Origin: Octopus sinensis
Taxonomy: Eukaryota
Direction: 5' to 3'
Assembly (NCBI RefSeq): GCF_006345805.1
Contig: NC_043009.1
Coordinates: forward strand, 16,678,001-16,742,000
Length of the DNA stretch: 64,000 bases
Part shown: positions 3,388-62,367 of the stretch, piece by piece
Layout of the letters: each line of letters starts with the position of its first letter
Position numbering within the stretch: position 1 is the first letter of the stretch
Position numbers and translations under genes: made by a program
The notes under the pieces: model-generated
What the model was told of the DNA's origin: nothing
Seen by the model: the letters and a program-made list of their open reading frames with translations, nothing else
The model's database searches: none

Positions 3388-6300
3388 ATCATTGTTTAAC
3401 ATCCACCTCCCATGCTGGCATGGGTTGGACGGTTTGACTGAGGACTGGCAAGCCAGGAGGCTGCACCAGGCTCCAATCTGATCTGGCAATCTGATCTACA
3501 ATCTGATCAGGCTCCAATCTGATCAACAGCTGGATGCCCTTCCTAATGCCAACCCCTCTGAGAGTGTAGTGAGTGCTTTTTACGTGCCACTGGCATGAGA
3601 GCCAGTCAGGCAGCACTGGCATCAACCATGCTCAAATGAAGCTTTTTACGTGCCACTGGTACGTACGATGCCAGTCAGGCAGCACTGGCATCAACCATGC
3701 TCAAATGAAGCTTTTTACGTGCCACTGGTACGTACGATGCCAGTCAGGCAGCACTGGCATCAACCATGCTCAAATGAAGCTTTTTACGTGCCACTGGTAC
3801 GTACGATGCCAGTCAGGCAGCACTGGCATCAACCATGCTCAAATGAAGCTTTTTACGTGCCACTGGTACGTACGATGCCAGTCAGGCAGCACTGGCATCA
3901 ACCATGCTCAAATGAAGCTTTTTACGTGCCACTGGTACGTACGATGCCAGTCAGGCAGCACTGGCATCAACAATGCTCAAATGAAGCTTTTTACGTGCCA
4001 CTGGTACGTACGATGCCAGTCAGGCAGCACTGGCATCAACCATGCTCAAATGAAGCTTTTTACGTGCCACTGGTACGTACGATGCCAGTCAGGCAGCACT
4101 GGCATCAACCATGCTCAAATGAAGCTTTTTACGTGCCACTGGTACGTACGATGCCAGTCAGGCAGCACTGGCATCAACAATGCTGAAATGAAGCTTTTTA
4201 CGTGCCACTGGTACGTACGATGCCAGTCAGGCAGCACTGGCATCAACCATGCTCAAATGAAGCTTTTTACGTGCCACTGGTACGTACGATGCCAGTCAGG
4301 CAGCACTGGCATCAACCATGCTCAAATAGAACCTTTTTACGTGCCACTGGTACGTACGATGCCAGTCAGGCAGCACTGGCATCAACAATGCTCAAATGAA
4401 GCTTTTTACGTGCCACTGGTACGTACGATGCCAGTCAGGCAGCACTGGCATCAACCATGCTCAAATGAAGCTTTTTACGTGCCACTGGTACGTACGATGC
4501 CAGTCAGGCAGCACTGGCATCAACCATGCTCAAATGAAGCTTTTTACGTGCCACTGGTACGTACGATGCCAGTCAGGCAGCACTGGCATCAACCATGCTC
4601 AAATGAAGCTTTTTACGTGCCACTGGTACGTACGATGCCAGTCAGGCAGCACTGGCATCAACCATGCTCAAATGAAGCTTTTTACGCGCCACTGGTACGT
4701 ACGATGCCAGTCAGGCAGCACTGGCATCAACAATGCTCAAATGAAGCTTTTTACGTGCCACTGGTACGTACGATGCCAGTCAGGCAGCACTGGCATCAAC
4801 CATGCTCAAATGAAGCTTTTTACGTGCCACTGGTACGTACGATGCCAGTCAGGCAGCACTGGCATCAACCATGCTCAAATAGAACCTTTTTACGTGCCAC
4901 TGGTACGTACGATGCCAGTCAGGCAGCACTGGCATCAACAATGCTCAAATGAAGCTTTTTACGTGCCACTGGTACGTACGATGCCAGTCAGGCAGCACTG
5001 GCATCAACCATGCTCAAATGAAGCTTTTTACGTGCCACTGGTACGTACGATGCCAGTCAGGCAGCACTGGCATCAACCATGCTCAAATGAAGCTTTTTAC
5101 GTGCCACTGGTACGTACGATGCCAGTCAGGCAGCACTGGCATCAACCATGCTCAAATGAAGCTTTTTACGTGCCACTGGTACGTACGATGCCAGTCAGGC
5201 AGCACTGGCATCAACAATGCTCAAATGAAGCTTTTTACTTGCCACTGGTACGTACGATGCCAGTCAGGCAGCACTGGCATCAACAATGCTCAAATGAAGC
5301 TTTTTACGTGCCACTGGTACGTACGATGCCAGTCAGGCAGCACTGGCATCAACCATGCTCAAATGAAGCTTTTTACGTGCCACTGGTACGTACGATGCCA
5401 GTCAGGCAGCACTGGCATCAACAATGCTCAAATGAAGCTTTTTACGTGCCACTGGTACGTACGATGCCAGTCAGGCAGCACTGGCATCAACCATGCTCAA
5501 ATGAAGCTTTTTACGTGCCACTGGTACGTACGATGCCAGTCAGGCAGCACTGGCATCAACCATGCTCAAATGAAGCTTTTTACGTGCCACTGGTACGTAC
5601 GATGCCAGTCAGGCAGCACTGGCATCAACCATGCTCAAATGAAGCTTTTTACGTGCCACTGGTACGTACGATGCCAGTCAGGCAGCACTGGCATCAACAA
5701 TGCTCAAATGAAGCTTTTTACGTGCCACTGGTACGTACGATGCCAGTCAGGCAGCACTGGCATCAACCATGCTCAAATGAAGCTTTTTACGTGCCACTGG
5801 TACGTACGATGCCAGTCAGGCAGCACTGGCATCAACCATGCTCAAATGAAGCTTTTTACGTGCCACTGGTACGTACGATGCCAGTCAGGCAGCACTGGCA
5901 TCAACAATGCTCAAATGAAGCTTTTTACGTGCCACTGGTACGTACGATGCCAGTCAGGCAGCACTGGCATCAACCATGCTCAAATGAAGCTTTTTACGTG
6001 CCACTGGTACGTACGATGCCAGTCAGGCAGCACTGGCATCAACCATGCTCAAATGAAGCTTTTTACGTGCCACTGGTACGTACGATGCCAGTCAGGCAGC
6101 ACTGGCATCAACAATGCTCAAATGAAGCTTTTTACGTGCCACTGGTACGTACGATGCCAGTCAGGCAGCACTGGCATCAACCATGCTCAAATGAAGCTTT
6201 TTACGTGCCACTGGTACGTACGATGCCAGTCAGGCAGCACTGGCATCAACAATGCTCAAATGAAGCTTTTTACGTGCCACTGGTACGTACGATGCCAGTC

Positions 6301-9300
6301 AGGCAGCACTGGCATCAACCATGCTCAAATGAAGCTTTTTACGTGCCACTGGTACGTACGATGCCAGTCAGGCAGCACTGGCATCAACCATGCTCAAATG
6401 AAGCTTTTTACGTGCCACTGGTACGTACGATGCCAGTCAGGCAGCACTGGCATCAACCATGCTCAAATGAAGCTTTTTACGTGCCACTGGTACGTACGAT
6501 GCCAGTCAGGCAGCACTGGCATCAACAATGCTCAAATGAAGCTTTTTACGTGCCACTGGTACGTACGATGCCAGTCAGGCAGCACTGGCATCAACCATGC
6601 TCAAATGAAGCTTTTTACGTGCCACTGGTACGTACGATGCCAGTCAGGCAGCACTGGCATCAACCATGCTCAAATGAAGCTTTTTACGTGCCACTGGTAC
6701 GTACGATGCCAGTCAGGCAGCACTGGCATCAACCATGCTCAAATGAAGCTTTTTACGTGCCACTGGTACGTACGATGCCAGTCAGGCAGCACTGGCATCA
6801 ACCATGCTCAAATGAAGCTTTTTACGTGCCACTGGTACGTACGATGCCAGTCAGGCAGCACTGGCATCAACAATGCTCAAATGAAGCTTTTTACGTGCCA
6901 CTGGTACGTACGATGCCAGTCAGGCAGCACTGGCATCAACCATGCTCAAATGAAGCTTTTTACGTGCCACTGGTACGTACGATGCCAGTCAGGCAGCACT
7001 GGCATCAACCATGCTCAAATGAAGCTTTTTACGTGCCACTGGTACGTACGATGCCAGTCAGGCAGCACTGGCATCAACAATGCTCAAATGAAGCTTTTTA
7101 CGTGCCACTGGTACGTACGATGCCAGTCAGGCAGCACTGGCATCAACCATGCTCAAATGAAGCTTTTTACGTGCCACTGGTACGTACGATGCCAGTCAGG
7201 CAGCACTGGCATCAACCATGCTCAAATGAAGCTTTTTACGTGCCACTGGTACGTACGATGCCAGTCAGGCAGCACTGGCATCAACCATGCTCAAATGAAG
7301 CTTTTTACGTGCCACTGGTACGTACGATGCCAGTCAGGCAGCACTGGCATCAACCATGCTCAAATGAAGCTTTTTACGTGCCACTGGTACGTACGATGCC
7401 AGTCAGGCAGCACTGGCATCAACAATGCTCAAATGAAGCTTTTTACGTGCCACTGGTACGTACGATGCCAGTCAGGCAGCACTGGCATCAACCATGCTCA
7501 AATGAAGCTTTTTACGTGCCACTGGTACGTACGATGCCAGTCAGGCAGCACTGGCATCAACCATGCTCAAATGAAGCTTTTTACGTGCCACTGGTACGTA
7601 CGATGCCAGTCAGGCAGCACTGGCATCAACATGCTCAAATGAAGCTTTTTACGTGCCACTGGTACGTACGATGCCAGTCAGGCAGCACTGGCATCAACAA
7701 TGCTCAAATGAAGCTTTTTACGTGCCACTGGTACGTACGATGCCAGTCAGGCAGCACTGGCATCAACCATGCTCAAATGAAGCTTTTTACGTGCCACTGG
7801 TACGTACGATGCCAGTCAGGCAGCACTGGCATCAACAATGCTCAAATGAAGCTTTTTACGTGCCACTGGTACGTACGATGCCAGTCAGGCAGCACTGGCA
7901 TCAACAATGCTCAAATGAAGCTTTTTACGTGCCACTGGTACGTACGATGCCAGTCAGGCAGCACTGGCATCAACCATGCTCAAATGAAGCTTTTTACGTG
8001 CCACTGGTACGTACGATGCCAGTCAGGCAGCACTGGCATCAACCATGCTCAAATGAAGCTTTTTACGTGCCACTGGTACGTACGATGCCAGTCAGGCAGC
8101 ACTGGCATCAACCATGCTCAAATGAAGCTTTTTACGTGCCACTGGTACGTACGATGCCAGTCAGGCAGCACTGGCATCAACAATGCTCAAATGAAGCTTT
8201 TTACGTGCCACTGGTACGTACGATGCCAGTCAGGCAGCACTGGCATCAACAATGCTCAAATGAAGCTTTTTACGTGCCACTGGTACGTACGATGCCAGTC
8301 AGGCAGCACTGGCATCAACCATGCTCAAATGAAGCTTTTTACGTGCCACTGGTACGTACGATGCCAGTCAGGCAGCACTGGCATCAACCATGCTCAAATG
8401 AAGCTTTTTACGTGCCACTGGTACGTACGATGCCAGTCAGGCAGCACTGGCATCAACCATGCTCAAATGAAGCTTTTTACGTGCCACTGGTACGTACGAT
8501 GCCAGTCAGGCAGCACTGGCATCAACAATGCTCAAATGAAGCTTTTTACGTGCCACTGGTACGTACGATGCCAGTCAGGCAGCACTGGCATCAACCATGC
8601 TCAAATGAAGCTTTTTACGTGCCACTGGTACGTACGATGCCAGTCAGGCAGCACTGGCATCAACAATGCTCAAATGAAGCTTTTTACGTGCCACTGGTAC
8701 GTACGATGCCAGTCAGGCAGCACTGGCATCAACCATGCTCAAATGAAGCTTTTTACGTGCCACTGGTACGTACGATGCCAGTCAGGCAGCACTGGCATCA
8801 ACCATGCTCAAATGAAGCTTTTTACGTGCCACTGGTACGTACGATGCCAGTCAGGCAGCACTGGCATCAACAATGCTCAAATGAAGCTTTTTACGTGCCA
8901 CTGGTACGTACGATGCCAGTCAGGCAGCACTGGCATCAACATGCTCAAATGAAGCTTTTTACGTGCCACTGGTACGTACGATGCCAGTCAGGCAGCACTG
9001 GCATCAACCATGCTCAAATGAAGCTTTTTACGTGCCACTGGTACGTACGATGCCAGTCAGGCAGCACTGGCATCAACAATGCTCAAATGAAGCTTTTTAC
9101 GTGCCACTGGTACGTACGATGCCAGTCAGGCAGCACTGGCATCAACAATGCTCAAATGAAGCTTTTTACGTGCCACTGGTACGTACGATGCCAGTCAGGC
9201 AGCACTGGCATCAACCATGCTCAAATGAAGCTTTTTACGTGCCACTGGTACGTACGATGCCAGTCAGGCAGCACTGGCATCAACCATGCTCAAATGAAGC

Positions 9301-12300
9301 TTTTTACGTGCCACTGGTACGTACGATGCCAGTCAGGCAGCACTGGCATCAACCATGCTCAAATGAAGCTTTTTACGTGCCACTGGTACGTACGATGCCA
9401 GTCAGGCAGCACTGGCATCAACATGCTCAAATGAAGCTTTTTACGTGCCACTGGTACGTACGATGCCAGTCAGGCAGCACTGGCATCAACAATGCTCAAA
9501 TGAAGCTTTTTACGTGCCACTGGTACGTACGATGCCAGTCAGGCAGCACTGGCATCAACCATGCTCAAATGAAGCTTTTTACGTGCCACTGGTACGTACG
9601 ATGCCAGTCAGGCAGCACTGGCATCAACCATGCTCAAATGAAGCTTTTTACGTGCCACTGGTACGTACGATGCCAGTCAGGCAGCACTGGCATCAACCAT
9701 GCTCAAATGAAGCTTTTTACGTGCCACTGGTACGTACGATGCCAGTCAGGCAGCACTGGCATCAACCATGCTCAAATGAAGCTTTTTACGTGCCACTGGT
9801 ACGTACGATGCCAGTCAGGCAGCACTGGCATCAACAATGCTCAAATGAAGCTTTTTACGTGCCACTGGTACGTACGATGCCAGTCAGGCAGCACTGGCAT
9901 CAACAATGCTCAAATGAAGCTTTTTACGTGCCACTGGTACGTACGATGCCAGTCAGGCAGCACTGGCATCAACAATGCTCAAATGAAGCTTTTTACGTGC
10001 CACTGGTACGTACGATGCCAGTCAGGCAGCACTGGCATCAACCATGCTCAAATGAAGCTTTTTACGTGCCACTGGTACGTACGATGCCAGTCAGGCAGCA
10101 CTGGCATCAACCATGCTCAAATGAAGCTTTTTACGTGCCACTGGTACGTACGATGCCAGTCAGGCAGCACTGGCATCAACCATGCTCAAATGAAGCTTTT
10201 TACGTGCCACTGGTACGTACGATGCCAGTCAGGCAGCACTGGCATCAACCATGCTCAAATGAAGCTTTTTACGTGCCACTGGTACGTACGATGCCAGTCA
10301 GGCAGCACTGGCATCAACAATGCTCAAATGAAGCTTTTTACGTGCCACTGGTACGTACGATGCCAGTCAGGCAGCACTGGCATCAACAATGCTCAAATGA
10401 AGCTTTTTACGTGCCACTGGTACGTACGATGCCAGTCAGGCAGCACTGGCATCAACATGCTCAAATGAAGCTTTTTACGTGCCACTGGTACGTACGATGC
10501 CAGTCAGGCAGCACTGGCATCAACCATGCTCAAATGAAGCTTTTTACGTGCCACTGGTACGTACGATGCCAGTCAGGCAGCACTGGCATCAACCATGCTC
10601 AAATGAAGCTTTTTACGTGCCACTGGTACGTACGATGCCAGTCAGGCAGCACTGGCATCAACAATGCTCAAATGAAGCTTTTTACGTGCCACTGGTACGT
10701 ACGATGCCAGTCAGGCAGCACTGGCATCAACCATGCTCAAATGAAGCTTTTTACGTGCCACTGGTACGTACGATGCCAGTCAGGCAGCACTGGCATCAAC
10801 AATGCTCAAATGAAGCTTTTTACGTGCCACTGGTACGTACGATGCCAGTCAGGCAGCACTGGCATCAACAATGCTCAAATGAAGCTTTTTACGTGCCACT
10901 GGTACGTACGATGCCAGTCAGGCAGCACTGGCATCAACCATGCTCAAATGAAGCTTTTTACGTGCCACTGGTACGTACGATGCCAGTCAGGCAGCACTGG
11001 CATCAACCATGCTCAAATGAAGCTTTTTACGTGCCACTGGTACGTACGATGCCAGTCAGGCAGCACTGGCATCAACATGCTCAAATGAAGCTTTTTACGT
11101 GCCACTGGTACGTACGATGCCAGTCAGGCAGCACTGGCATCAACAATGCTCAAATGAAGCTTTTTACGTGCCACTGGTACGTACGATGCCAGTCAGGCAG
11201 CACTGGCATCAACAATGCTCAAATGAAGCTTTTTACGTGCCACTGGTACGTACGATGCCAGTCAGGCAGCACTGGCATCAACAATGCTCAAATGAAGCTT
11301 TTTACGTGCCACTGGTACGTACGATGCCAGTCAGGCAGCACTGGCATCAACCATGCTCAAATGAAGCTTTTTACGTGCCACTGGTACGTACGATGCCAGT
11401 CAGGCAGCACTGGCATCAACCATGCTCAAATGAAGCTTTTTACGTGCCACTGGTACGTACGATGCCAGTCAGGCAGCACTGGCATCAACCATGCTCAAAT
11501 GAAGCTTTTTACGTGCCACTGGTACGTACGATGCCAGTCAGGCAGCACTGGCATCAACATGCTCAAATGAAGCTTTTTACGTGCCACTGGTACGTACGAT
11601 GCCAGTCAGGCAGCACTGGCATCAACAATGCTCAAATGAAGCTTTTTACGTGCCACTGGTACGTACGATGCCAGTCAGGCAGCACTGGCATCAACAATGC
11701 TCAAATGAAGCTTTTTACGTGCCACTGGTACGTACGATGCCAGTCAGGCAGCACTGGCATCAACCATGCTCAAATGAAGCTTTTTACGTGCCACTGGTAC
11801 GTACGATGCCAGTCAGGCAGCACTGGCATCAACCATGCTCAAATGAAGCTTTTTACGTGCCACTGGTACGTACGATGCCAGTCAGGCAGCACTGGCATCA
11901 ACATGCTCAAATGAAGCTTTTTACGTGCCACTGGTACGTACGATGCCAGTCAGGCAGCACTGGCATCAACCATGCTCAAATGAAGCTTTTTACGTGCCAC
12001 TGGTACGTACGATGCCAGTCAGGCAGCACTGGCATCAACAATGCTCAAATGAAGCTTTTTACGTGCCACTGGTACGTACGATGCCAGTCAGGCAGCACTG
12101 GCATCAACAATGCTCAAATGAAGCTTTTTACGTGCCACTGGTACGTACGATGCCAGTCAGGCAGCACTGGCATCAACAATGCTCAAATGAAGCTTTTTAC
12201 GTGCCACTGGTACGTACGATGCCAGTCAGGCAGCACTGGCATCAACAATGCTCAAATGAAGCTTTTTACGTGCCACTGGTACGTACGATGCCAGTCAGGC

Positions 12301-15300
12301 AGCACTGGCATCAACAATGCTCAAATGAAGCTTTTTACGTGCCACTGGTACGTACGATGCCAGTCAGGCAGCACTGGCATCAACCATGCTCAAATGAAGC
12401 TTTTTACGTGCCACTGGTACGTACGATGCCAGTCAGGCAGCACTGGCATCAACATGCTCAAATGAAGCTTTTTACGTGCCACTGGTACGTACGATGCCAG
12501 TCAGGCAGCACTGGCATCAACATGCTCAAATGAAGCTTTTTACGTGCCACTGGTACGTACGATGCCAGTCAGGCAGCACTGGCATCAACAATGCTCAAAT
12601 GAAGCTTTTTACGTGCCACTGGTACGTACGATGCCAGTCAGGCAGCACTGGCATCAACCATGCTCAAATGAAGCTTTTTACGTGCCACTGGTACGTACGA
12701 TGCCAGTCAGGCAGCACTGGCATCAACCATGCTCAAATGAAGCTTTTTACGTGCCACTGGTACGTACGATGCCAGTCAGGCAGCACTGGCATCAACATGC
12801 TCAAATGAAGCTTTTTACGTGCCACTGGTACGTACGATGCCAGTCAGGCAGCACTGGCATCAACCATGCTCAAATGAAGCTTTTTACGTGCCACTGGTAC
12901 GTACGATGCCAGTCAGGCAGCACTGGCATCAACCATGCTCAAATGAAGCTTTTTACGTGCCACTGGTACGTACGATGCCAGTCAGGCAGCACTGGCATCA
13001 ACCATGCTCAAATGAAGCTTTTTACGTGCCACTGGTACGTACGATGCCAGTCAGGCAGCACTGGCATCAACAATGCTCAAATGAAGCTTTTTACGTGCCA
13101 CTGGTACGTACGATGCCAGTCAGGCAGCACTGGCATCAACCATGCTCAAATGAAGCTTTTTACGTGCCACTGGTACGTACGATGCCAGTCAGGCAGCACT
13201 GGCATCAACCATGCTCAAATGAAGCTTTTTACGTGCCACTGGTACGTACGATGCCAGTCAGGCAGCACTGGCATCAACCATGCTCAAATGAAGCTTTTTA
13301 CGTGCCACTGGTACGTACGATGCCAGTCAGGCAGCACTGGCATCAACCATGCTCAAATGAAGCTTTTTACGTGCCACTGGTACGTACGATGCCAGTCAGG
13401 CAGCACTGGCATCAACCATGCTCAAATGAAGCTTTTTACGTGCCACTGGTACGTACGATGCCAGTCAGGCAGCACTGGCATCAACCATGCTCAAATGAAG
13501 CTTTTTACGTGCCACTGGTACGTACGATGCCAGTCAGGCAGCACTGGCATCAACCATGCTCAAATGAAGCTTTTTACGTGCCACTGGTACGTACGATGCC
13601 AGTCAGGCAGCACTGGCATCAACCATGCTCAAATGAAGCTTTTTACGTGCCACTGGTACGTACGATGCCAGTCAGGCAGCACTGGCATCAACCATGCTCA
13701 AATGAAGCTTTTTACGTGCCACTGGTACGTACGATGCCAGTCAGGCAGCACTGGCATCAACAATGCTCAAATGAAGCTTTTTACGTGCCACTGGTACGTA
13801 CGATGCCAGTCAGGCAGCACTGGCATCAACAATGCTCAAATGAAGCTTTTTACGTGCCACTGGTACGTACGATGCCAGTCAGGCAGCACTGGCATCAACC
13901 ATGCTCAAATGAAGCTTTTTACGTGCCACTGGTACGTACGATGCCAGTCAGGCAGCACTGGCATCAACCATGCTCAAATGAAGCTTTTTACGTGCCACTG
14001 GTACGTACGATGCCAGTCAGGCAGCACTGGCATCAACCATGCTCAAATGAAGCTTTTTACGTGCCACTGGTACGTACGATGCCAGTCAGGCAGCACTGGC
14101 ATCAACCATGCTCAAATGAAGCTTTTTACGTGCCACTGGTACGTACGATGCCAGTCAGGCAGCACTGGCATCAACCATGCTCAAATGAAGCTTTTTACGT
14201 GCCACTGGTACGTACGATGCCAGTCAGGCAGCACTGGCATCAACAATGCTCAAATGAAGCTTTTTACGTGCCACTGGTACGTACGATGCCAGTCAGGCAG
14301 CACTGGCATCAACCATGCTCAAATGAAGCTTTTTACGTGCCACTGGTACGTACGATGCCAGTCAGGCAGCACTGGCATCAACCATGCTCAAATGAAGCTT
14401 TTTACGTGCCACTGGTACGTACGATGCCAGTCAGGCAGCACTGGCATCAACCATGCTCAAATGAAGCTTTTTACGTGCCACTGGTACGTACGATGCCAGT
14501 CAGGCAGCACTGGCATCAACCATGCTCAAATGAAGCTTTTTACGTGCCACTGGTACGTACGATGCCAGTCAGGCAGCACTGGCATCAACAATGCTCAAAT
14601 GAAGCTTTTTACGTGCCACTGGTACGTACGATGCCAGTCAGGCAGCACTGGCATCAACCATGCTCAAATGAAGCTTTTTACGTGCCACTGGTACGTACGA
14701 TGCCAGTCAGGCAGCACTGGCATCAACAATGCTCAAATGAAGCTTTTTACGTGCCACTGGTACGTACGATGCCAGTCAGGCAGCACTGGCATCAACAATG
14801 CTCAAATGAAGCTTTTTACGTGCCACTGGTACGTACGATGCCAGTCAGGCAGCACTGGCATCAACCATGCTCAAATGAAGCTTTTTACGTGCCACTGGTA
14901 CGTACGATGCCAGTCAGGCAGCACTGGCATCAACCATGCTCAAATGAAGCTTTTTACGTGCCACTGGTACGTACGATGCCAGTCAGGCAGCACTGGCATC
15001 AACAATGCTCAAATGAAGCTTTTTACGTGCCACTGGTACGTACGATGCCAGTCAGGCAGCACTGGCATCAACCATGCTCAAATGAAGCTTTTTACGTGCC
15101 ACTGGTACGTACGATGCCAGTCAGGCAGCACTGGCATCAACAATGCTCAAATGAAGCTTTTTACGTGCCACTGGTACGTACGATGCCAGTCAGGCAGCAC
15201 TGGCATCAACCATGCTCAAATGAAGCTTTTTACGTGCCACTGGTACGTACGATGCCAGTCAGGCAGCACTGGCATCAACAATGCTCAAATGAAGCTTTTT

Positions 15301-18300: not shown

Positions 18301-21300
18301 GGCATCAACCATGCTCAAATGAAGCTTTTTACGTGCCACTGGTACGTACGATGCCAGTCAGGCAGCACTGGCATCAACCATGCTCAAATGAAGCTTTTTA
18401 CGTGCCACTGGTACGTACGATGCCAGTCAGGCAGCACTGGCATCAACCATGCTCAAATGAAGCTTTTTACGTGCCACTGGTACGTACGATGCCAGTCAGG
18501 CAGCACTGGCATCAACCATGCTCAAATGAAGCTTTTTACGTGCCACTGGTACGTACGATGCCAGTCAGGCAGCACTGGCATCAACCATGCTCAAATGAAG
18601 CTTTTTACGTGCCACTGGTACGTACGATGCCAGTCAGGCAGCACTGGCATCAACAATGCTCAAATGAAGCTTTTTACGTGCCACTGGTACGTACGATGCC
18701 AGTCAGGCAGCACTGGCATCAACAATGCTCAAATGAAGCTTTTTACGTGCCACTGGTACGTACGATGCCAGTCAGGCAGCACTGGCATCAACCATGCTCA
18801 AATGAAGCTTTTTACGTGCCACTGGTACGTACGATGCCAGTCAGGCAGCACTGGCATCAACCATGCTCAAATGAAGCTTTTTACGTGCCACTGGTACGTA
18901 CGATGCCAGTCAGGCAGCACTGGCATCAACCATGCTCAAATGAAGCTTTTTACGTGCCACTGGTACGTACGATGCCAGTCAGGCAGCACTGGCATCAACC
19001 ATGCTCAAATGAAGCTTTTTACGTGCCACTGGTACGTACGATGCCAGTCAGGCAGCACTGGCATCAACATGCTCAAATGAAGCTTTTTACGTGCCACTGG
19101 TACGTACGATGCCAGTCAGGCAGCACTGGCATCAACCATGCTCAAATGAAGCTTTTTACGTGCCACTGGTACGTACGATGCCAGTCAGGCAGCACTGGCA
19201 TCAACCATGCTCAAATGAAGCTTTTTACGTGCCACTGGTACGTACGATGCCAGTCAGGCAGCACTGGCATCAACCATGCTCAAATGAAGCTTTTTACGTG
19301 CCACTGGTACGTACGATGCCAGTCAGGCAGCACTGGCATCAACCATGCTCAAATGAAGCTTTTTACGTGCCACTGGTACGTACGATGCCAGTCAGGCAGC
19401 ACTGGCATCAACCATGCTCAAATGAAGCTTTTTACGTGCCACTGGTACGTACGATGCCAGTCAGGCAGCACTGGCATCAACCATGCTCAAATGAAGCTTT
19501 TTACGTGCCACTGGTACGTACGATGCCAGTCAGGCAGCACTGGCATCAACCATGCTCAAATGAAGCTTTTTACGTGCCACTGGTACGTACGATGCCAGTC
19601 AGGCAGCACTGGCATCAACCATGCTCAAATGAAGCTTTTTACGTGCCACTGGTACGTACGATGCCAGTCAGGCAGCACTGGCATCAACCATGCTCAAATG
19701 AAGCTTTTTACGTGCCACTGGTACGTACGATGCCAGTCAGGCAGCACTGGCATCAACCATGCTCAAATGAAGCTTTTTACGTGCCACTGGTACGTACGAT
19801 GCCAGTCAGGCAGCACTGGCATCAACCATGCTCAAATGAAGCTTTTTACGTGCCACTGGTACGTACGATGCCAGTCAGGCAGCACTGGCATCAACCATGC
19901 TCAAATGAAGCTTTTTACGTGCCACTGGTACGTACGATGCCAGTCAGGCAGCACTGGCATCAACCATGCTCAAATGAAGCTTTTTACGTGCCACTGGTAC
20001 GTACGATGCCAGTCAGGCAGCACTGGCATCAACCATGCTCAAATGAAGCTTTTTACGTGCCACTGGTACGTACGATGCCAGTCAGGCAGCACTGGCATCA
20101 ACCATGCTCAAATGAAGCTTTTTACGTGCCACTGGTACGTACGATGCCAGTCAGGCAGCACTGGCATCAACAATGCTCAAATGAAGCTTTTTACGTGCCA
20201 CTGGTACGTACGATGCCAGTCAGGCAGCACTGGCATCAACCATGCTCAAATGAAGCTTTTTACGTGCCACTGGTACGTACGATGCCAGTCAGGCAGCACT
20301 GGCATCAACCATGCTCAAATGAAGCTTTTTACGTGCCACTGGTACGTACGATGCCAGTCAGGCAGCACTGGCATCAACCATGCTCAAATGAAGCTTTTTA
20401 CGTGCCACTGGTACGTACGATGCCAGTCAGGCAGCACTGGCATCAACCATGCTCAAATGAAGCTTTTTACGTGCCACTGGTACGTACGATGCCAGTCAGG
20501 CAGCACTGGCATCAACCATGCTCAAATGAAGCTTTTTACGTGCCACTGGTACGTACGATGCCAGTCAGGCAGCACTGGCATCAACCATGCTCAAATGAAG
20601 CTTTTTACGTGCCACTGGTACGTACGATGCCAGTCAGGCAGCACTGGCATCAACAATGCTCAAATGAAGCTTTTTACGTGCCACTGGTACGTACGATGCC
20701 AGTCAGGCAGCACTGGCATCAACCATGCTCAAATGAAGCTTTTTACGTGCCACTGGTACGTACGATGCCAGTCAGGCAGCACTGGCATCAACAATGCTCA
20801 AATGAAGCTTTTTACGTGCCACTGGTACGTACGATGCCAGTCAGGCAGCACTGGCATCAACAATGCTCAAATGAAGCTTTTTACGTGCCACTGGTACGTA
20901 CGATGCCAGTCAGGCAGCACTGGCATCAACCATGCTCAAATGAAGCTTTTTACGTGCCACTGGTACGTACGATGCCAGTCAGGCAGCACTGGCATCAACA
21001 TGCTCAAATGAAGCTTTTTACGTGCCACTGGTACGTACGATGCCAGTCAGGCAGCACTGGCATCAACCATGCTCAAATGAAGCTTTTTACGTGCCACTGG
21101 TACGTACGATGCCAGTCAGGCAGCACTGGCATCAACCATGCTCAAATGAAGCTTTTTACGTGCCACTGGTACGTACGATGCCAGTCAGGCAGCACTGGCA
21201 TCAACCATGCTCAAATGAAGCTTTTTACGTGCCACTGGTACGTACGATGCCAGTCAGGCAGCACTGGCATCAACCATGCTCAAATGAAGCTTTTTACGTG

Positions 21301-24300
21301 CCACTGGTACGTACGATGCCAGTCAGGCAGCACTGGCATCAACCATGCTCAAATGAAGCTTTTTACGTGCCACTGGTACGTACGATGCCAGTCAGGCAGC
21401 ACTGGCATCAACCATGCTCAAATGAAGCTTTTTACGTGCCACTGGTACGTACGATGCCAGTCAGGCAGCACTGGCATCAACCATGCTCAAATGAAGCTTT
21501 TTACGTGCCACTGGTACGTACGATGCCAGTCAGGCAGCACTGGCATCAACAATGCTCAAATGAAGCTTTTTACGTGCCACTGGTACGTACGATGCCAGTC
21601 AGGCAGCACTGGCATCAACAATGCTCAAATGAAGCTTTTTACGTGCCACTGGTACGTACGATGCCAGTCAGGCAGCACTGGCATCAACCATGCTCAAATG
21701 AAGCTTTTTACGTGCCACTGGTACGTACGATGCCAGTCAGGCAGCACTGGCATCAACCATGCTCAAATGAAGCTTTTTACGTGCCACTGGTACGTACGAT
21801 GCCAGTCAGGCAGCACTGGCATCAACCATGCTCAAATGAAGCTTTTTACGTGCCACTGGTACGTACGATGCCAGTCAGGCAGCACTGGCATCAACCATGC
21901 TCAAATGAAGCTTTTTACGTGCCACTGGTACGTACGATGCCAGTCAGGCAGCACTGGCATCAACAATGCTCAAATGAAGCTTTTTACGTGCCACTGGTAC
22001 GTACGATGCCAGTCAGGCAGCACTGGCATCAACAATGCTCAAATGAAGCTTTTTACGTGCCACTGGTACGTACGATGCCAGTCAGGCAGCACTGGCATCA
22101 ACCATGCTCAAATGAAGCTTTTTACGTGCCACTGGTACGTACGATGCCAGTCAGGCAGCACTGGCATCAACCATGCTCAAATGAAGCTTTTTACGTGCCA
22201 CTGGTACGTACGATGCCAGTCAGGCAGCACTGGCATCAACCATGCTCAAATGAAGCTTTTTACGTGCCACTGGTACGTACGATGCCAGTCAGGCAGCACT
22301 GGCATCAACCATGCTCAAATGAAGCTTTTTACGTGCCACTGGTACGTACGATGCCAGTCAGGCAGCACTGGCATCAACCATGCTCAAATGAAGCTTTTTA
22401 CGTGCCACTGGTACGTACGATGCCAGTCAGGCAGCACTGGCATCAACAATGCTCAAATGAAGCTTTTTACGTGCCACTGGTACGTACGATGCCAGTCAGG
22501 CAGCACTGGCATCAACCATGCTCAAATGAAGCTTTTTACGTGCCACTGGTACGTACGATGCCAGTCAGGCAGCACTGGCATCAACCATGCTCAAATGAAG
22601 CTTTTTACGTGCCACTGGTACGTACGATGCCAGTCAGGCAGCACTGGCATCAACCATGCTCAAATGAAGCTTTTTACGTGCCACTGGTACGTACGATGCC
22701 AGTCAGGCAGCACTGGCATCAACCATGCTCAAATGAAGCTTTTTACGTGCCACTGGTACGTACGATGCCAGTCAGGCAGCACTGGCATCAACCATGCTCA
22801 AATGAAGCTTTTTACGTGCCACTGGTACGTACGATGCCAGTCAGGCAGCACTGGCATCAACATGCTCAAATGAAGCTTTTTACGTGCCACTGGTACGTAC
22901 GATGCCAGTCAGGCAGCACTGGCATCAACCATGCTCAAATGAAGCTTTTTACGTGCCACTGGTACGTACGATGCCAGTCAGGCAGCACTGGCATCAACCA
23001 TGCTCAAATGAAGCTTTTTACGTGCCACTGGTACGTACGATGCCAGTCAGGCAGCACTGGCATCAACCATGCTCAAATGAAGCTTTTTACGTGCCACTGG
23101 TACGTACGATGCCAGTCAGGCAGCACTGGCATCAACAATGCTCAAATGAAGCTTTTTACGTGCCACTGGTACGTACGATGCCAGTCAGGCAGCACTGGCA
23201 TCAACAATGCTCAAATGAAGCTTTTTACGTGCCACTGGTACGTACGATGCCAGTCAGGCAGCACTGGCATCAACCATGCTCAAATGAAGCTTTTTACGTG
23301 CCACTGGTACGTACGATGCCAGTCAGGCAGCACTGGCATCAACCATGCTCAAATGAAGCTTTTTACGTGCCACTGGTACGTACGATGCCAGTCAGGCAGC
23401 ACTGGCATCAACCATGCTCAAATGAAGCTTTTTACGTGCCACTGGTACGTACGATGCCAGTCAGGCAGCACTGGCATCAACCATGCTCAAATGAAGCTTT
23501 TTACGTGCCACTGGTACGTACGATGCCAGTCAGGCAGCACTGGCATCAACCATGCTCAAATGAAGCTTTTTACGTGCCACTGGTACGTACGATGCCAGTC
23601 AGGCAGCACTGGCATCAACCATGCTCAAATGAAGCTTTTTACGTGCCACTGGTACGTACGATGCCAGTCAGGCAGCACTGGCATCAACCATGCTCAAATG
23701 AAGCTTTTTACGTGCCACTGGTACGTACGATGCCAGTCAGGCAGCACTGGCATCAACAATGCTCAAATGAAGCTTTTTACGTGCCACTGGTACGTACGAT
23801 GCCAGTCAGGCAGCACTGGCATCAACCATGCTCAAATGAAGCTTTTTACGTGCCACTGGTACGTACGATGCCAGTCAGGCAGCACTGGCATCAACCATGC
23901 TCAAATGAAGCTTTTTACGTGCCACTGGTACGTACGATGCCAGTCAGGCAGCACTGGCATCAACCATGCTCAAATGAAGCTTTTTACGTGCCACTGGTAC
24001 GTACGATGCCAGTCAGGCAGCACTGGCATCAACATGCTCAAATGAAGCTTTTTACGTGCCACTGGTACGTACGATGCCAGTCAGGCAGCACTGGCATCAA
24101 CCATGCTCAAATGAAGCTTTTTACGTGCCACTGGTACGTACGATGCCAGTCAGGCAGCACTGGCATCAACAATGCTCAAATGAAGCTTTTTACGTGCCAC
24201 TGGTACGTACGATGCCAGTCAGGCAGCACTGGCATCAACAATGCTCAAATGAAGCTTTTTACGTGCCACTGGTACGTACGATGCCAGTCAGGCAGCACTG

Positions 24301-27300
24301 GCATCAACCATGCTCAAATGAAGCTTTTTACGTGCCACTGGTACGTACGATGCCAGTCAGGCAGCACTGGCATCAACAATGCTCAAATGAAGCTTTTTAC
24401 GTGCCACTGGTACGTACGATGCCAGTCAGGCAGCACTGGCATCAACCATGCTCAAATGAAGCTTTTTACGTGCCACTGGTACGTACGATGCCAGTCAGGC
24501 AGCACTGGCATCAACAATGCTCAAATGAAGCTTTTTACGTGCCACTGGTACGTACGATGCCAGTCAGGCAGCACTGGCATCAACAATGCTCAAATGAAGC
24601 TTTTTACGTGCCACTGGTACGTACGATGCCAGTCAGGCAGCACTGGCATCAACCATGCTCAAATGAAGCTTTTTACGTGCCACTGGTACGTACGATGCCA
24701 GTCAGGCAGCACTGGCATCAACCATGCTCAAATGAAGCTTTTTACGTGCCACTGGTACGTACGATGCCAGTCAGGCAGCACTGGCATCAACCATGCTCAA
24801 ATGAAGCTTTTTACGTGCCACTGGTACGTACGATGCCAGTCAGGCAGCACTGGCATCAACAATGCTCAAATGAAGCTTTTTACGTGCCACTGGTACGTAC
24901 GATGCCAGTCAGGCAGCACTGGCATCAACCATGCTCAAATGAAGCTTTTTACGTGCCACTGGTACGTACGATGCCAGTCAGGCAGCACTGGCATCAACAA
25001 TGCTCAAATGAAGCTTTTTACGTGCCACTGGTACGTACGATGCCAGTCAGGCAGCACTGGCATCAACCATGCTCAAATGAAGCTTTTTACGTGCCACTGG
25101 TACGTACGATGCCAGTCAGGCAGCACTGGCATCAACAATGCTCAAATGAAGCTTTTTACGTGCCACTGGTACGTACGATGCCAGTCAGGCAGCACTGGCA
25201 TCAACATGCTCAAATGAAGCTTTTTACGTGCCACTGGTACGTACGATGCCAGTCAGGCAGCACTGGCATCAACCATGCTCAAATGAAGCTTTTTACGTGC
25301 CACTGGTACGTACGATGCCAGTCAGGCAGCACTGGCATCAACAATGCTCAAATGAAGCTTTTTACGTGCCACTGGTACGTACGATGCCAGTCAGGCAGCA
25401 CTGGCATCAACCATGCTCAAATGAAGCTTTTTACGTGCCACTGGTACGTACGATGCCAGTCAGGCAGCACTGGCATCAACAATGCTCAAATGAAGCTTTT
25501 TACGTGCCACTGGTACGTACGATGCCAGTCAGGCAGCACTGGCATCAACCATGCTCAAATGAAGCTTTTTACGTGCCACTGGTACGTACGATGCCAGTCA
25601 GGCAGCACTGGCATCAACCATGCTCAAATGAAGCTTTTTACGTGCCACTGGTACGTACGATGCCAGTCAGGCAGCACTGGCATCAACCATGCTCAAATGA
25701 AGCTTTTTACGTGCCACTGGTACGTACGATGCCAGTCAGGCAGCACTGGCATCAACCATGCTCAAATGAAGCTTTTTACGTGCCACTGGTACGTACGATG
25801 CCAGTCAGGCAGCACTGGCATCAACCATGCTCAAATGAAGCTTTTTACGTGCCACTGGTACGTACGATGCCAGTCAGGCAGCACTGGCATCAACAATGCT
25901 CAAATGAAGCTTTTTACGTGCCACTGGTACGTACGATGCCAGTCAGGCAGCACTGGCATCAACAATGCTCAAATGAAGCTTTTTACGTGCCACTGGTACG
26001 TACGATGCCAGTCAGGCAGCACTGGCATCAACCATGCTCAAATGAAGCTTTTTACGTGCCACTGGTACGTACGATGCCAGTCAGGCAGCACTGGCATCAA
26101 CAATGCTCAAATGAAGCTTTTTACGTGCCACTGGTACGTACGATGCCAGTCAGGCAGCACTGGCATCAACCATGCTCAAATGAAGCTTTTTACGTGCCAC
26201 TGGTACGTACGATGCCAGTCAGGCAGCACTGGCATCAACCATGCTCAAATGAAGCTTTTTACGTGCCACTGGTACGTACGATGCCAGTCAGGCAGCACTG
26301 GCATCAACAATGCTCAAATGAAGCTTTTTACGTGCCACTGGTACGTACGATGCCAGTCAGGCAGCACTGGCATCAACAATGCTCAAATGAAGCTTTTTAC
26401 GTGCCACTGGTACGTACGATGCCAGTCAGGCAGCACTGGCATCAACCATGCTCAAATGAAGCTTTTTACGTGCCACTGGTACGTACGATGCCAGTCAGGC
26501 AGCACTGGCATCAACCATGCTCAAATGAAGCTTTTTACGTGCCACTGGTACGTACGATGCCAGTCAGGCAGCACTGGCATCAACCATGCTCAAATGAAGC
26601 TTTTTACGTGCCACTGGTACGTACGATGCCAGTCAGGCAGCACTGGCATCAACCATGCTCAAATGAAGCTTTTTACGTGCCACTGGTACGTACGATGCCA
26701 GTCAGGCAGCACTGGCATCAACCATGCTCAAATGAAGCTTTTTACGTGCCACTGGTACGTACGATGCCAGTCAGGCAGCACTGGCATCAACAATGCTCAA
26801 ATGAAGCTTTTTACGTGCCACTGGTACGTACGATGCCAGTCAGGCAGCACTGGCATCAACCATGCTCAAATGAAGCTTTTTACGTGCCACTGGTACGTAC
26901 GATGCCAGTCAGGCAGCACTGGCATCAACCATGCTCAAATGAAGCTTTTTACGTGCCACTGGTACGTACGATGCCAGTCAGGCAGCACTGGCATCAACCA
27001 TGCTCAAATGAAGCTTTTTACGTGCCACTGGTACGTACGATGCCAGTCAGGCAGCACTGGCATCAACCATGCTCAAATGAAGCTTTTTACGTGCCACTGG
27101 TACGTACGATGCCAGTCAGGCAGCACTGGCATCAACCATGCTCAAATGAAGCTTTTTACGTGCCACTGGTACGTACGATGCCAGTCAGGCAGCACTGGCA
27201 TCAACCATGCTCAAATGAAGCTTTTTACGTGCCACTGGTACGTACGATGCCAGTCAGGCAGCACTGGCATCAACAATGCTCAAATGAAGCTTTTTACGTG

Positions 27301-30300
27301 CCACTGGTACGTACGATGCCAGTCAGGCAGCACTGGCATCAACCATGCTCAAATGAAGCTTTTTACGTGCCACTGGTACGTACGATGCCAGTCAGGCAGC
27401 ACTGGCATCAACCATGCTCAAATGAAGCTTTTTACGTGCCACTGGTACGTACGATGCCAGTCAGGCAGCACTGGCATCAACAATGCTCAAATGAAGCTTT
27501 TTACGTGCCACTGGTACGTACGATGCCAGTCAGGCAGCACTGGCATCAACATGCTCAAATGAAGCTTTTTACGTGCCACTGGTACGTACGATGCCAGTCA
27601 GGCAGCACTGGCATCAACCATGCTCAAATGAAGCTTTTTACGTGCCACTGGTACGTACGATGCCAGTCAGGCAGCACTGGCATCAACAATGCTCAAATGA
27701 AGCTTTTTACGTGCCACTGGTACGTACGATGCCAGTCAGGCAGCACTGGCATCAACCATGCTCAAATGAAGCTTTTTACGTGCCACTGGTACGTACGATG
27801 CCAGTCAGGCAGCACTGGCATCAACCATGCTCAAATGAAGCTTTTTACGTGCCACTGGTACGTACGATGCCAGTCAGGCAGCACTGGCATCAACCATGCT
27901 CAAATGAAGCTTTTTACGTGCCACTGGTACGTACGATGCCAGTCAGGCAGCACTGGCATCAACCATGCTCAAATGAAGCTTTTTACGTGCCACTGGTACG
28001 TACGATGCCAGTCAGGCAGCACTGGCATCAACCATGCTCAAATGAAGCTTTTTACGTGCCACTGGTACGTACGATGCCAGTCAGGCAGCACTGGCATCAA
28101 CAATGCTCAAATGAAGCTTTTTACGTGCCACTGGTACGTACGATGCCAGTCAGGCAGCACTGGCATCAACCATGCTCAAATGAAGCTTTTTACGTGCCAC
28201 TGGTACGTACGATGCCAGTCAGGCAGCACTGGCATCAACCATGCTCAAATGAAGCTTTTTACGTGCCACTGGTACGTACGATGCCAGTCAGGCAGCACTG
28301 GCATCAACCATGCTCAAATGAAGCTTTTTACGTGCCACTGGTACGTACGATGCCAGTCAGGCAGCACTGGCATCAACAATGCTCAAATGAAGCTTTTTAC
28401 GTGCCACTGGTACGTACGATGCCAGTCAGGCAGCACTGGCATCAACCATGTTCAAATGAAGCTTTTTACGTGCCACTGGTACGTACGATGCCAGTCAGGC
28501 AGCACTGGCATCAACAATGCTCAAATGAAGCTTTTTACGTGCCACTGGTACGTACGATGCCAGTCAGGCAGCACTGGCATCAACAATGCTCAAATGAAGC
28601 TTTTTACGTGCCACTGGTACGTACGATGCCAGTCAGGCAGCACTGGCATCAACCATGCTCAAATGAAGCTTTTTACGTGCCACTGGTACGTACGATGCCA
28701 GTCAGGCAGCACTGGCATCAACAATGCTCAAATGAAGCTTTTTACGTGCCACTGGTACGTACGATGCCAGTCAGGCAGCACTGGCATCAACCATGCTCAA
28801 ATGAAGCTTTTTACGTGCCACTGGTACGTACGATGCCAGTCAGGCAGCACTGGCATCAACCATGCTCAAATGAAGCTTTTTACGTGCCACTGGTACGTAC
28901 GATGCCAGTCAGGCAGCACTGGCATCAACCATGCTCAAATGGTTTTTTTACGTGCCACTGGTACGTACGATGCCAGTCAGGCAGCACTGGCATCAACGAT
29001 GCTCAAATGAAGCTTTTTACGTGCCACTGGTACGTACGATGCCAGTCAGGCAGCACTGGCATCAACAATGCTCAAATGAAGCTTTTTACGTGCCACTGGT
29101 ACGTACGATGCCAGTCAGGCAGCACTGGCATCAACCATGCTCAAATGAAGCTTTTTACGTGCCACTGGTACGTACGATGCCAGTCAGGCAGCACTGGCAT
29201 CAACCATGCTCAAATGGTGTTTTTTACGTGCCACTGGTACGTACGATGCCAGTCAGGCAGCACTGGCATCAACAATGCTCAAATGAAGCTTTTTACGTGC
29301 CACTGGTACGTACGATGCCAGTCAGACTGCACTGGCATCAACCATGCTCAAATGAAGCTTTTTACGTGCCACTGGTACGTACGATGCCAGTCAGGCAGCA
29401 CTGGCATCAACCATGCTCAAATGAAGCTTTTTACGTGCCACTGGTACGTACGATGCCAGTCAGGCAGCACTGGCATCAACAATGCTCAAATGAAGCTTTT
29501 TACGTGCCACTGGTACGTACGATGCCAGTCAGGCAGCACTGGCATCAACCATGCTCAAATGAAGCTTTTTACGTGCCACTGGTACGTACGATGCCAGTCA
29601 GACTGCACTGGCATCAACCATGCTCAAATGAAGCTTTTTACGTGCCACTGGTACGTACGATGCCAGTCAGGCAGCACTGGCATCAACAATGCTCAAATGA
29701 AGCTTTTACGTGCCACTTGTACGTACGATGCCAGTCAGGCAGCACTGGCATCAACAATGCTCAAATGAAGCTTTTTACGTGCCACTGGTACGTACGATGC
29801 CAGTCAGAGCACTGGCATCAACCATGCTCAAATGAAGCTTTTTACGTGCCACTGGTACGTACGATGCCAGTCAGGCAGCACTGGCATCAACCATGCTCAA
29901 ATGAAGCTTTTTACGTGCCACTGGTACGTACGATGCCAGTCAGGCAGCACTGGCATCAACCATGCTCAAATGGTGGTTTTACGTGCCACTGGTACGTACG
30001 ATGCCAGTCAGGCAGCACTGGCATCAACCATGCTCAAATGAAGCTTTTTACGTGCCACTGGTACGTACGATGCCAGTCAGGCAGCACTGGCATCAACCAT
30101 GCTCAAATGAAGCTTTTTACGTGCCACTGGTACGTACGATGCCAGTCAGGCAGCACTGGCATCAACCATGCTCAAATGAAGCTTTTTACGTGCCACTGGT
30201 ACGTACGATGCCAGTCAGGCAGCACTGGCATCAACCATGCTCAAATGAAGCTTTTACGTGCCACTGGTACGTACGATGCCAGTCAGGCAGCACTGGCATC

Positions 30301-32234
30301 AACCATGCTCAAATGAAGCTTTTTACGTGCCACTGGTACGTACGATGCCAGTCAGGCAGCACTGGCATCAACAATGCTCAAATGAAGCTTTTTACGTGCC
30401 ACTGGTACGTACGATGCCAGTCAGGCAGCACTGGCATCAACAATGCTGAAATGAAGCTTTTTACGTGCCACTGGTACGTACGATGCCAGTCAGGCAGCAC
30501 TGGCATCAACCATGCTCAAATGAAGCTTTTTACGTGCCACTGGTACGTACGATGCCAGTCAGGCAGCACTGGCATCAACAATGCTCAAATGAAGCTTTTT
30601 ACGTGCCACTGGTACGTACGATGCCAGTCAGGCAGCACTGGCATCAACCATGCTCAAATGAAGCTTTTTACGTGCCACTGGTACGTACGATGCCAGTCAG
30701 GCAGCACTGGCATCAACCATGCTCAAATGAAGCTTTTTACGTGCCACTGGTACGTACGATGCCAGTCAGGCAGCACTGGCATCAACCATGTTCAAATGAA
30801 GCTTTTTACGTGCCACTGGTACGTACGATGCCAGTCAGGCAGCACTGGCATCAACAATGCTCAAATGAAGCTTTTTACGTGCCACTGGTACGTACGATGC
30901 CAGTCAGGCAGCACTGGCATCAACCATGCTCAAATGAAGCTTTTTACGTGCCACTGGTACGTACGATGCCAGTCAGGCAGCACTGGCATCAACAATGCTC
31001 AAATGAAGCTTTTTACGTGCCACTGGTACGTACGATGCCAGTCAGGCAGCACTGGCATCAACAATGCTCAAATGAAGCTTTTTACGTGCCACTGGTACGT
31101 ACGATGCCAGTCAGGCAGCACTGGCATCAACCATGCTCAAATGAAGCTTTTTACGTGCCACTGGTACGTACGATGCCAGTCAGGCAGCACTGGCATCAAC
31201 CATGCTCAAATGAAGCTTTTTACGTGCCACTGGTACGTACGATGCCAGTCAGGCAGCACTGGCATCAACAATGCTCAAATGAAGCTTTTTACGTGCCACT
31301 GGTACGTACGATGCCAGTCAGGCAGCACTGGCATCAACCATGCTCAAATGAAGCTTTTTACGTGCCACTGGTACGTACGATGCCAGTCAGGCAGCACTGG
31401 CATCAACCATGCTCAAATGAAGCTTTTTACGTGCCACTGGTACGTACGATGCCAGTCAGGCAGCACTGGCATCAACCATGCTCAAACGGTGTTTTTTACG
31501 TGCCACTGCTACGTACGATGCCAGTCAGGCAGCACTGGCATCAACAATGCTCAAATGAAGCTTTTTACGTGCCACTGGTACGTACGATGCCAGTCAGGCA
31601 GCACTGGCATCAACCATGCTCAAATAGAACCTTTTTACGTGCCACTGGTACGTACGATGCCAGTCAGGCAGCACTGGCATCAACAATGCTCAAATGAAGC
31701 TTTTTACGTGCCACTGGTACGTACGATGCCAGTCAGGCAGCACTGGCATCAACAATGCTCAAATGAAGCTTTTTACGTGCCACTGGTACGTACGATGCCA
31801 GTCAGGCAGCACTGGCATCAACCATGCTCAAATGAAGCTTTTTACGTGCCACTGGTACGTACGATGCCAGTCAGGCAGCACTGGCATCAACCATGCTCAA
31901 ATGGTGTTTTTTACGTGCCACTGGTACGTACGATGCCAGTCAGGCAGCACTGGCATCAACAATGCTCAAATGAAGCTTTTTACGTGCCACTGGTACGTAC
32001 GATGCCAGTCAGACTGCACTGGCATCAACCATGCTCAAATGGTGGTCTTTACGTGCCACTGGTACGTACGATGCCAGTCAGACTGCACTGGCATCGACCA
32101 TGCTCAAAGTGCTTTTTACATACCACCAGCACGGGAGACAGTCAAGCGGCGCTGGCATCGACCACACTCGAATGGTGCTTTCTATGTGCCAGTCAGGTGA
32201 CAATGGCATCGACCACACTCAAATGGTGCTTTTT
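3388..32234 (-). mobile_element. RTE LINE 3' UTR fragment hosting the 69-bp array
   Basis: 3388-3580 aligns by eye with the 3' end of the RT-bearing LINE at 37658-37830 (cat..tttaac..catgctggc.tgggttggac..gctggatgcccttcctaa..ccaac). 32113-32234 aligns with its next two UTR repeat units. Confidence 0.85.
3577..32112. repeat. 69-bp tandem satellite/minisatellite, about 410 units
   Basis: Unit TTTTTACGTGCCACTGGTACGTACGATGCCAGTCAGGCAGCACTGGCATCAAC[C/A]ATGCTCAAATGAAGC. Copy number estimated as length/69. The first unit (3577-3642) is a 66-bp ancestral-type variant. Confidence 0.99.
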
Positions 32235-32235
32235 A

Positions 32236-32373
32236 GTGTCCATCCACCAAATCCACTCACAAGACTGTGAAACACCCAAGGCTACAGTGGAAGACACTTG
32301 CTCAAAGTGCCACACAGTGGGACTGAATCATGTAATTGGTAAGCAAGCGTCTTACCACACAGCCATGCCTGCA
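32236..32373 (-). mobile_element. Partial tRNA-derived SINE
   Basis: Homologous to the head of the SINE at 32551-32990 (ccaaatccactcacaag..gaagacacttg..cagtgggactgaa..cttaccacacagcca). Confidence 0.75.
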
Positions 32374-37585: not shown

Positions 37586-37657
37586 CTATAGAAAGATAAG
37601 CAACAGTCTTCATCACACATAATAAATTTGCATCATAACTGATCTCAATTCTCAAAT

Positions 37658-62362: not shown

Positions 62363-62367
62363 AAATA

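Follow-up and report, generated by a model that had tools for sequence, protein, structure and literature searches.

We consider it likely that a unit of ~66 bp from the 3′ untranslated region (UTR) of a long interspersed nuclear element (LINE) was multiplied in place about 400-fold, by repeated unequal exchange, at one old insertion in an intron of a COMMD8-like gene of Octopus sinensis. The locus lies in a stretch of 64,000 nucleotides (assembly GCF_006345805.1, contig NC_043009.1, positions 16,678,001 to 16,742,000), which was analyzed as a whole and is referred to below as the window. Amplification in place had been proposed by an initial annotation drawn from the letters of the window alone, and is supported here by the elements that bracket the array, the mosaic composition of its edges, a 21-mer private to the locus, and flanks that belong to a single gene. 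The assembly gap with the duplicate behind it, the host gene, the unusual smoothness of the array centre and the presence of comparable arrays elsewhere in the genome had escaped that annotation.

Tandem Repeats Finder detected a 69-bp period over 3575-32126, with 414.2 copies and 98% matches, in agreement with the ~400-fold repeat described initially, and the mean distance between units is 0.9%, as in a long head-to-tail array of a homogeneous monomer. The middle of the first unit is GCATGAGA, and that of every amplified unit is GTACGTACGAT. The 21-mer carrying these private changes has 464 matches in the 2.72-Gb assembly, all of them inside the window (411 in the main array and 53 in a second array), and a control gave 0. 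HindIII, SnaBI and BsiWI have 404, 413 and 413 sites over the array, which bears out the expected one site per unit. The brackets stand in the order that had been noted, with a LINE 3′ end on the left and two UTR units on the right, according to both self-BLAST and unit-by-unit reading. The left bracket (3385-3655) aligns with the LINE 3′ ends at 37659 (77%), 34769 (73%) and 47796 (71%), and the right bracket (32113-32217) with 37825-37928 (81%, 105 nt, E 3e-20), so that the likeness reported between the units at 37825-37930 and the terminal units of the array also holds.

Units with rare variants are concentrated at the two ends of the array (5/24 at the left edge, 0/334 in the centre and 17/55 at the right edge; p 1e-17), and two rare unit types are common to the left and right edges. 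TGG-type junctions, the ancestral-like alleles already recognized near the right edge, are present in six of the last 46 units and in none of the first 367. In the LINE head that bears the array, ~29 extra bases at 3467-3525 form a second, short local duplication that is private to this copy; on its right, the same element is interrupted by a piece of a different repeat.

The LINE family and its host gene

The structure of the LINE family is best seen in a related copy on C1 (L151), to which the copy at 37656-39330 is 82% identical over 1,310 nt. An unbroken 1061-aa frame (L151:3836-7021, minus strand) contains Exo_endo_phos, RVT_1 (E 4e-32) and a PHD-like finger, no other open reading frame (ORF) of at least 200 aa lies upstream of it on the same strand, and a 3′ UTR of ~1 kb with 62-bp units lies downstream. 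The copy at 37656-39330 likewise retains RVT_1 (E 7e-6, below the cut-off) and a PHD-like finger. As the frame is followed by the units in both copies, the unit belongs to the 3′ UTR. In this family, units of 61-68 bp stand in tandem close to the 3′ end, ~170 bp from it. Judged by the intact frame of L151, the family may have been active recently.

Elements of the RTE clade have one long ORF with an apurinic endonuclease and a reverse transcriptase (RT), a 3′ tail of short repeats and frequent 5′ truncation. The single ORF with endonuclease and RT is present in L151, and the tail and truncation are represented by (ATG)n tails and truncated copies; by this architecture the family appears to fit the RTE clade. 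Atlas matches to the LINE protein are clusters with RVT_1 and endonuclease, in part with PHD. The array-bearing head differs by 11-18% from 27 of the 29 other heads compared. The initial annotation had taken the copies at 34765, 37658 and 47791 as the ancestral state; their low counts of diverged units (2-4) agree with our reading, but in a tree of heads they are paralogues of mixed subfamilies instead of an ancestor. Two further relatives were observed in the window: an older subfamily of this LINE, in which a 26-bp unit occupies the corresponding place in the UTR (36901-36976), and a decayed RT-region fragment of a related LINE (43533-44620, plus strand).

The COMMD8-like gene was traced by tblastn with a homologue labelled Octopus vulgaris, the one found among 4 candidates. 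Exons 1-4 are 98-100% identical to it and in order, at one locus in the genome and over ~102 kb of the assembly (stretches L015, L016 and L012). Exon 1 lies outside the window, at window coordinate 83370-83447, and exons 3 and 4 lie to the left of exon 2. With exon 1 beyond the right flank and exon 2 at 813-974, the array is placed within intron 1, and as exons occur in order on both sides, both array flanks belong to one gene. The array is thus intronic and interstitial, and the LINE is in sense orientation relative to the gene. Ketoacyl-synthase leads from the Atlas for the 54-aa exon, all below 0.9, were set aside in favour of the Pfam match and the 98% identical homologue.

Table 1. Features of the array locus in the window
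Coordinates	Strand	Feature	Remarks
813..974	-	COMMD8-like gene, exon 2	Pfam COMMD8_HN, E 1.5e-8
3388..3577	-	LINE copy, 3′ terminal part (head)	worn (ATG)n tail; private ~29-bp internal duplication
3578..3643	-	first unit, 66 bp	ancestral-type GCATGAGA middle; TGAAGC junction already present
3644..5271	.	array, left edge, ~24 units	rare variants in 5 units; two of the types recur at right edge
5272..28295	.	array, centre, 334 units	variation at the C/A site alone; 22 units one base short there; no singletons
28296..32113	.	array, right edge, 55 units	rare variants in 17 units, 6 of them with TGG-type junctions; traces of duplicated blocks; re-read at 51238-55100
32114..32230	-	two unamplified UTR units	diverged 66-bp unit at 32114-32179; short 51-bp unit at 32180-32230
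32231..32365	.	fragment of another dispersed repeat, ending the element	78% to 32839-32980
34765..35120	-	paralogous LINE 3′ end	3-4 diverged units
37656..39330	-	5′-truncated paralogous LINE	(ATG)n tail/3′ end, 2 units, broken RT and PHD-like coding region
47791..48120	-	paralogous LINE 3′ end, other subfamily	3 units, with 62- and 67-bp units
51138..51237	.	assembly gap	100 N
51238..55100	.	array end (last 55-56 units), assembled a second time	17/17 rare-variant positions match units 359-413; C/A site the same in 53/55
55093..64000	.	second assembly of the right flank	extends to window coordinate 74208

Assembly of the locus and depth in read sets

The right part of the array and its flank appear twice in the assembly, on the two sides of a gap (Table 1). 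The flank at 32100-51137 agrees with 55093-74208 at 99.26% over 19,144 columns, with 8 mismatches and 104 gap openings, and the differences are mostly homopolymer indels that become denser near the contig end. The array at 51238-55100 and its 19 kb of flank likely represent two overlapping contigs, that is, a false duplication of ~23 kb across the gap. A true segmental duplication at 51-74 kb was considered and is disfavoured, because the duplicate begins at the gap and nearly all differences are homopolymer indels; a near-identical copy next to a gap, with mainly error-type indel differences, is the pattern of a false duplication. False duplication in assemblies is an established general concept (PMC9516828). 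Since the second assembly re-reads units 359-413, it validates the right edge independently. Together, gap and false duplication inflate intron 1 of the COMMD8-like gene from ~59 to 82 kb. The duplication (51138-64000, on to 74208) also doubles each repeat copy of 32.1-51.1 kb.

The centre of the array is of a different quality. In the centre, 22 units are one base short exactly at the C/A site, but none of the 79 edge units is (p 0.012). We infer that the centre results from consensus averaging over out-of-register reads and that the figure of 414 units is approximate. No higher-order periodicity above that of shuffles was detected in the centre, and it could not be explained as a re-tiled right-edge pattern (best score 7.9, compared with a shuffled mean of 8.7). 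The abrupt shift from variant-rich edges to a centre free of rare variants could also be produced if one or a few units had formed a small extrachromosomal circle that was copied by rolling-circle replication and reinserted at the same locus in a single burst. We regard such a burst as unlikely: the C/A site is aperiodic in the centre, with a strongest autocorrelation of -0.2 and longest shared runs like those of shuffles; the base-short units at the polymorphic site, together with the lack of error singletons, are better explained by consensus averaging; and other arrays of this family contain block duplications and variants throughout.

Depth of the private motif was obtained from four of 21 listed runs, which were aligned to 1681-3780; all four are contig sets, and the depths given here are sums over contigs, which are no true copy number, at motif places 3666 (substitution table) and 3734 (gap table). 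Depth over the single-copy flank was 50.6 in X1, 38.3 in X19, 4.84 in X20 and ~59 in X3. At the two places the motif reached 125,667 + 74,662 in X1, 109 + 5,915 in X19 and 4.5 + 0 in X20; in X3 it reached 62 + 126, exclusively in a form with a 2-base deletion, and gaps in the coverage of the flank by X3 are given no weight here. The ratio of motif to flank, again on summed contig depth, was ~3,960 in X1, ~157 in X19 and ~0.9 in X20. X1 is possibly the sample behind the assembly itself. The flank of X19, a run read to 76%, has 1 difference in 715 bases, and that of X20, a run read whole with depth below 5, has 6 differences in 749 bases (~99% identical). These observations suggest amplification of the private unit in X1 and X19, perhaps to unequal extents, and about a single copy of it in X20. 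Even with 31 records overlapping every base, the depth in X1 requires at least ~128 units; if three of the sums represent 3, 5 and 7 overlapping records of ~25,000 each, we would guess ~490 units per haploid genome. Overall, the read-word depth points to hundreds of units.

These data also bear on the view that the assembler over-expanded a short run. The locus is indeed mis-assembled, with a gap, a 23-kb false duplication and a smoothed centre. However, two contigs match unit by unit over 55 units, X1 requires about 128 units or more, and an error-free centre fits the piling-up of reads (collapse) better than stretching; the objection applies to the exact number 414, not to the array, and an artefact as the source of the array itself is highly improbable. 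Of the initial estimate of ~400 units, an array of hundreds is therefore real, whereas the exact figure is an assembly value with a seemingly consensus-smoothed centre.

Arrays across the genome and their mode of growth

At least 21 further arrays of at least 15 units were found in the genome, 20 through searches and 1 through a blind stretch, in line with the earlier suggestion that other copies of the LINE could seed arrays. Each DNA search scored the best 39-40 of 1,390-6,203 candidates (for the array-finding searches, 39-40 of 2,060-6,203, plus fetched stretches), and the catalogue is a lower bound. The further arrays have 272 (C21), 168 (C10), 154 (C26), 98 (C17), 88 (C21), 81 (C26), 71 and 56 (both C11), 37, 35 and 29 units, and ten have 15-21. 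The expansions span 1-28 kb and are scattered, one being intronic; the array in the window is the longest of the 22, and the sizes form a continuum. The description of the locus as a satellite "caught at birth" was accordingly overstated, as its unit is confined to one locus; for the same reason (464/464 matches of the private 21-mer in the window) it is no classical satellite with the same monomer at several loci.

The LINE 3′ head adjoins 19 of the 22 arrays in the expected orientation. Among 132 sampled units, 120 have their nearest neighbour within their own array (chance ~0.04), as under concerted evolution. The 18 arrays compared have different flanks, and their commonest units are 0.05-0.30 apart between arrays, compared with 0.006-0.19 within. 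When 30 heads were placed on a tree, those of array-bearing copies came from several subfamilies and were interspersed with those of unamplified copies, in a star-like topology of weak resolution. The C26 and C21 arrays contain block duplications of some 20-35 units. In 73 blind stretches of 10 kb with 57 full heads, 50 heads had 0-4 units, 5 had 5-7 and 2 had at least 12, which extrapolates to ~210,000 heads genome-wide, 0.4-12% of them (95% interval) with at least 12 units. A young subfamily with a 63-bp unit had ~4-5 units in 40/40 scored copies, although the 4-unit query favours such matches. The ten largest chromosomes hold 1 of the 8 other arrays of at least 50 units (p 0.027) and 5 of the 20 placed arrays of at least 15 (p 0.013), where 52% of heads are expected; given a partial search and a small baseline, this is only a hint of a bias away from the largest chromosomes. 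Two of nine arrays of at least 50 units are situated no more than 250 kb from the end of a scaffold (L062:1496-7935 on C17, at 24-31 kb, and L074-L075 on C10, at 245-256 kb).

Several individual loci add to this picture. At L057:8787-9456, a 96-bp piece of the LINE 3′ head is repeated seven times at 97% identity and followed by at least eight 67-bp units; other parts of the LINE also expand. Dimer arrays of 132 bp, an early form of higher-order repeat, occur at L058:4279-5639 and L077:4443-5446 (98% and 95% at period 132). Apparently different units were observed in L095 (C24, 9.990-9.994 Mb; 62 x 59 bp at 96%) and at L106:9081-10000 (at least 13 x 70 bp, GC-rich, 97%).

Judged by divergence, the array in the window appears young and its host LINE copy old, with 0.9% within the array compared with 11-18% for the head. 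LINE integration begins at the 3′ end, and even heavily truncated copies would therefore deliver the unit run, amounting to an estimated ~200,000 seeds. At the array locus, the private change GTACGTACGAT would have come first, and a few duplications would have followed in which the old TGG junction was retained; a misaligned exchange involving the first unit would then likely have produced a unit with both TGAAGC and GTACGTACGAT. This unit would have swept the array, the edges, which exchange less, keeping older variants. Growth and homogenisation would have proceeded by unequal exchange between sister chromatids or homologues, or by conversion, long after insertion.

Alternatively, the run may have been long on arrival, having lengthened in a source element or by slippage during reverse transcription. 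Such elements exist: a young subfamily with a 61-bp unit has many dispersed copies with runs of ~7-30 units, one with 29, at 93% identity between loci. For the array in the window, an origin of this kind is nonetheless quite improbable, as the head is 11-18% diverged and the units 0.9%, the private unit is confined to this locus, and X20 has the private motif at single-copy depth. Expansion driven by hairpins was also considered and rejected, as amplified and unamplified units fold alike. In DNA folding of 22 amplified and 17 unamplified 100-base stretches, hairpin energy was -17.2 compared with -17.3 kcal/mol (p 0.83) and the z-score -0.82 compared with -0.80 (p 0.68), and folding showed no relation to array length; the unit of the window array itself folds moderately (z -2.1).

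A selected role, in which the array tunes COMMD8 expression or acts as a chromatin or structural element, would suit the intronic position and the sense orientation of the LINE. It is highly improbable, the least probable of the explanations weighed here, since X20, with a ~99% identical flank, apparently has no amplification, many similar arrays exist elsewhere, and a search of the unit against Rfam gave no family near its gathering score (five Corona_FSE matches at 19-20 bits, against a cut-off of 46, are attributable to chance). Most likely, the array consists of selfish or neutral DNA that is tolerated since splicing removes it.

Several observations weigh against growth in place by exchange. 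The exchange mechanism itself is inferred. Around the array-bearing LINE no target-site duplication that would tie the two array edges to one insertion was found, only chance 6-base matches between 3341-3400 and 32201-32300. Rare variants are lacking in all 334 centre units and present in 22 of the 79 edge units, while each of the eight other arrays of at least 50 units has them in every fifth of its length; with a consensus-smoothed centre, the sequence and length of that part are unreliable. Repeated blocks in the C/A pattern of the centre are no more frequent than in shuffles, though smoothing could hide them. As to depth, the contig sums do not represent copy number, X1 is possibly the sample that was assembled, X19 was read to 76% and X20 has a depth below 5. 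The young 61-bp-unit subfamily disperses already-long runs, and some of the range of lengths may therefore have come down from source elements. Finally, in the two larger C26 arrays, at 2.84 Mb (L052-L053) and 3.535 Mb (L055), which lie 0.7 Mb apart with different flanks, the commonest units are 5% apart and nearest neighbours are swapped; conversion between arrays and parallel CpG decay are candidate readings.

On a broader scale, we propose, tentatively and with somewhat less than even confidence, that the LINE family acts as a genome-wide satellite-seeding device. Some 200,000 truncated copies with a 61-68-bp seed would be dispersed, of which hundreds to thousands would have grown independently, preferentially on small chromosomes; loci would pass from about one to several hundred units (tens of kb) while their flanks diverged by less than 1%, and would vary several-fold among individuals, even in the intron of a conserved single-copy gene. 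If true, this would provide a replicated, internally dated natural experiment on satellite birth. Such births are usually deduced from the homology of a completed satellite to a transposon; in the present case the donor 3′ end is retained and serves as a rough insertion clock. With attached donors and many independent growths, the predictors of expansion, such as chromosome size or recombination rate, seed length and age, could be addressed with replicates. In addition, such arrays break long-read assemblies and would serve as highly variable markers.

Comparison with known retroelement-derived satellites

As in retrotransposon-derived satellites, the monomer of the octopus array shares homology with an identifiable portion of a transposable element, and donor sequence stands at the array edge. 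In hominids, SVA elements disperse an internal variable-number tandem repeat (VNTR) by retrotransposition, and its length varies from locus to locus, including loci in introns; SVA, however, is a non-autonomous element whose VNTR does not grow beyond a few kb.

The closest description in octopus is that of RTE-2_OV of Octopus vulgaris (PMC9115989), which has a single ORF of ~1100 aa with endonuclease, RT and zinc finger and a 3′ UTR that is largely a tandem repeat, which blocked PCR. In the parts of that source covered here, the repeat is termed a microsatellite and neither its unit nor expansions are described, and the likeness is one of description, not of sequence. More generally, no description of the octopus unit or its expansions was found in the full-text literature searched, including passages of PMC9068888, a body of text that excludes most subscription papers as well as Repbase.

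Among animals, the SINE-derived satellites (sSats) of squamates, where SINE denotes a short interspersed nuclear element, resemble the octopus arrays in several respects (PMC10702118): arrays arise from part of a dispersed retroelement at many independent loci, the terminal unit runs to the end of the element, longer arrays are more uniform, arrays reach ~1000 units, and unit number varies at orthologous loci. They differ in that the octopus seed is a ready tandem run in the 3′ UTR of an autonomous LINE, whereas the sSat seed is duplicated SINE sequence, and in that long octopus arrays are mostly private to their locus, whereas long sSat loci are reported there as homogeneous between loci. In plants, the short non-coding arrays in the 3′ UTR of Ogre elements have similarly undergone occasional long expansion, giving rise to PisTR-A and to FabTR satellites of Lathyrus, as described in PMC7004042 and PMC9659126; Ogre is a plant element with long terminal repeats (LTR), in contrast to the animal non-LTR element of octopus, and the Lathyrus expansions are mainly in primary constrictions.

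A monomer homologous to the 3′ region of a LINE is also known, as listed in PMC9659126, in the cetacean common satellite (L1), chicken HinfI (CR1) and Drosophila 18HT (HeT-A). These are known by homology, as finished families, whereas in octopus 22 arrays form a graded series and donor flanks remain in place. The process by which arrays arise from retroelements is thus already described in plants and reptiles, and the octopus case adds a replicated series.

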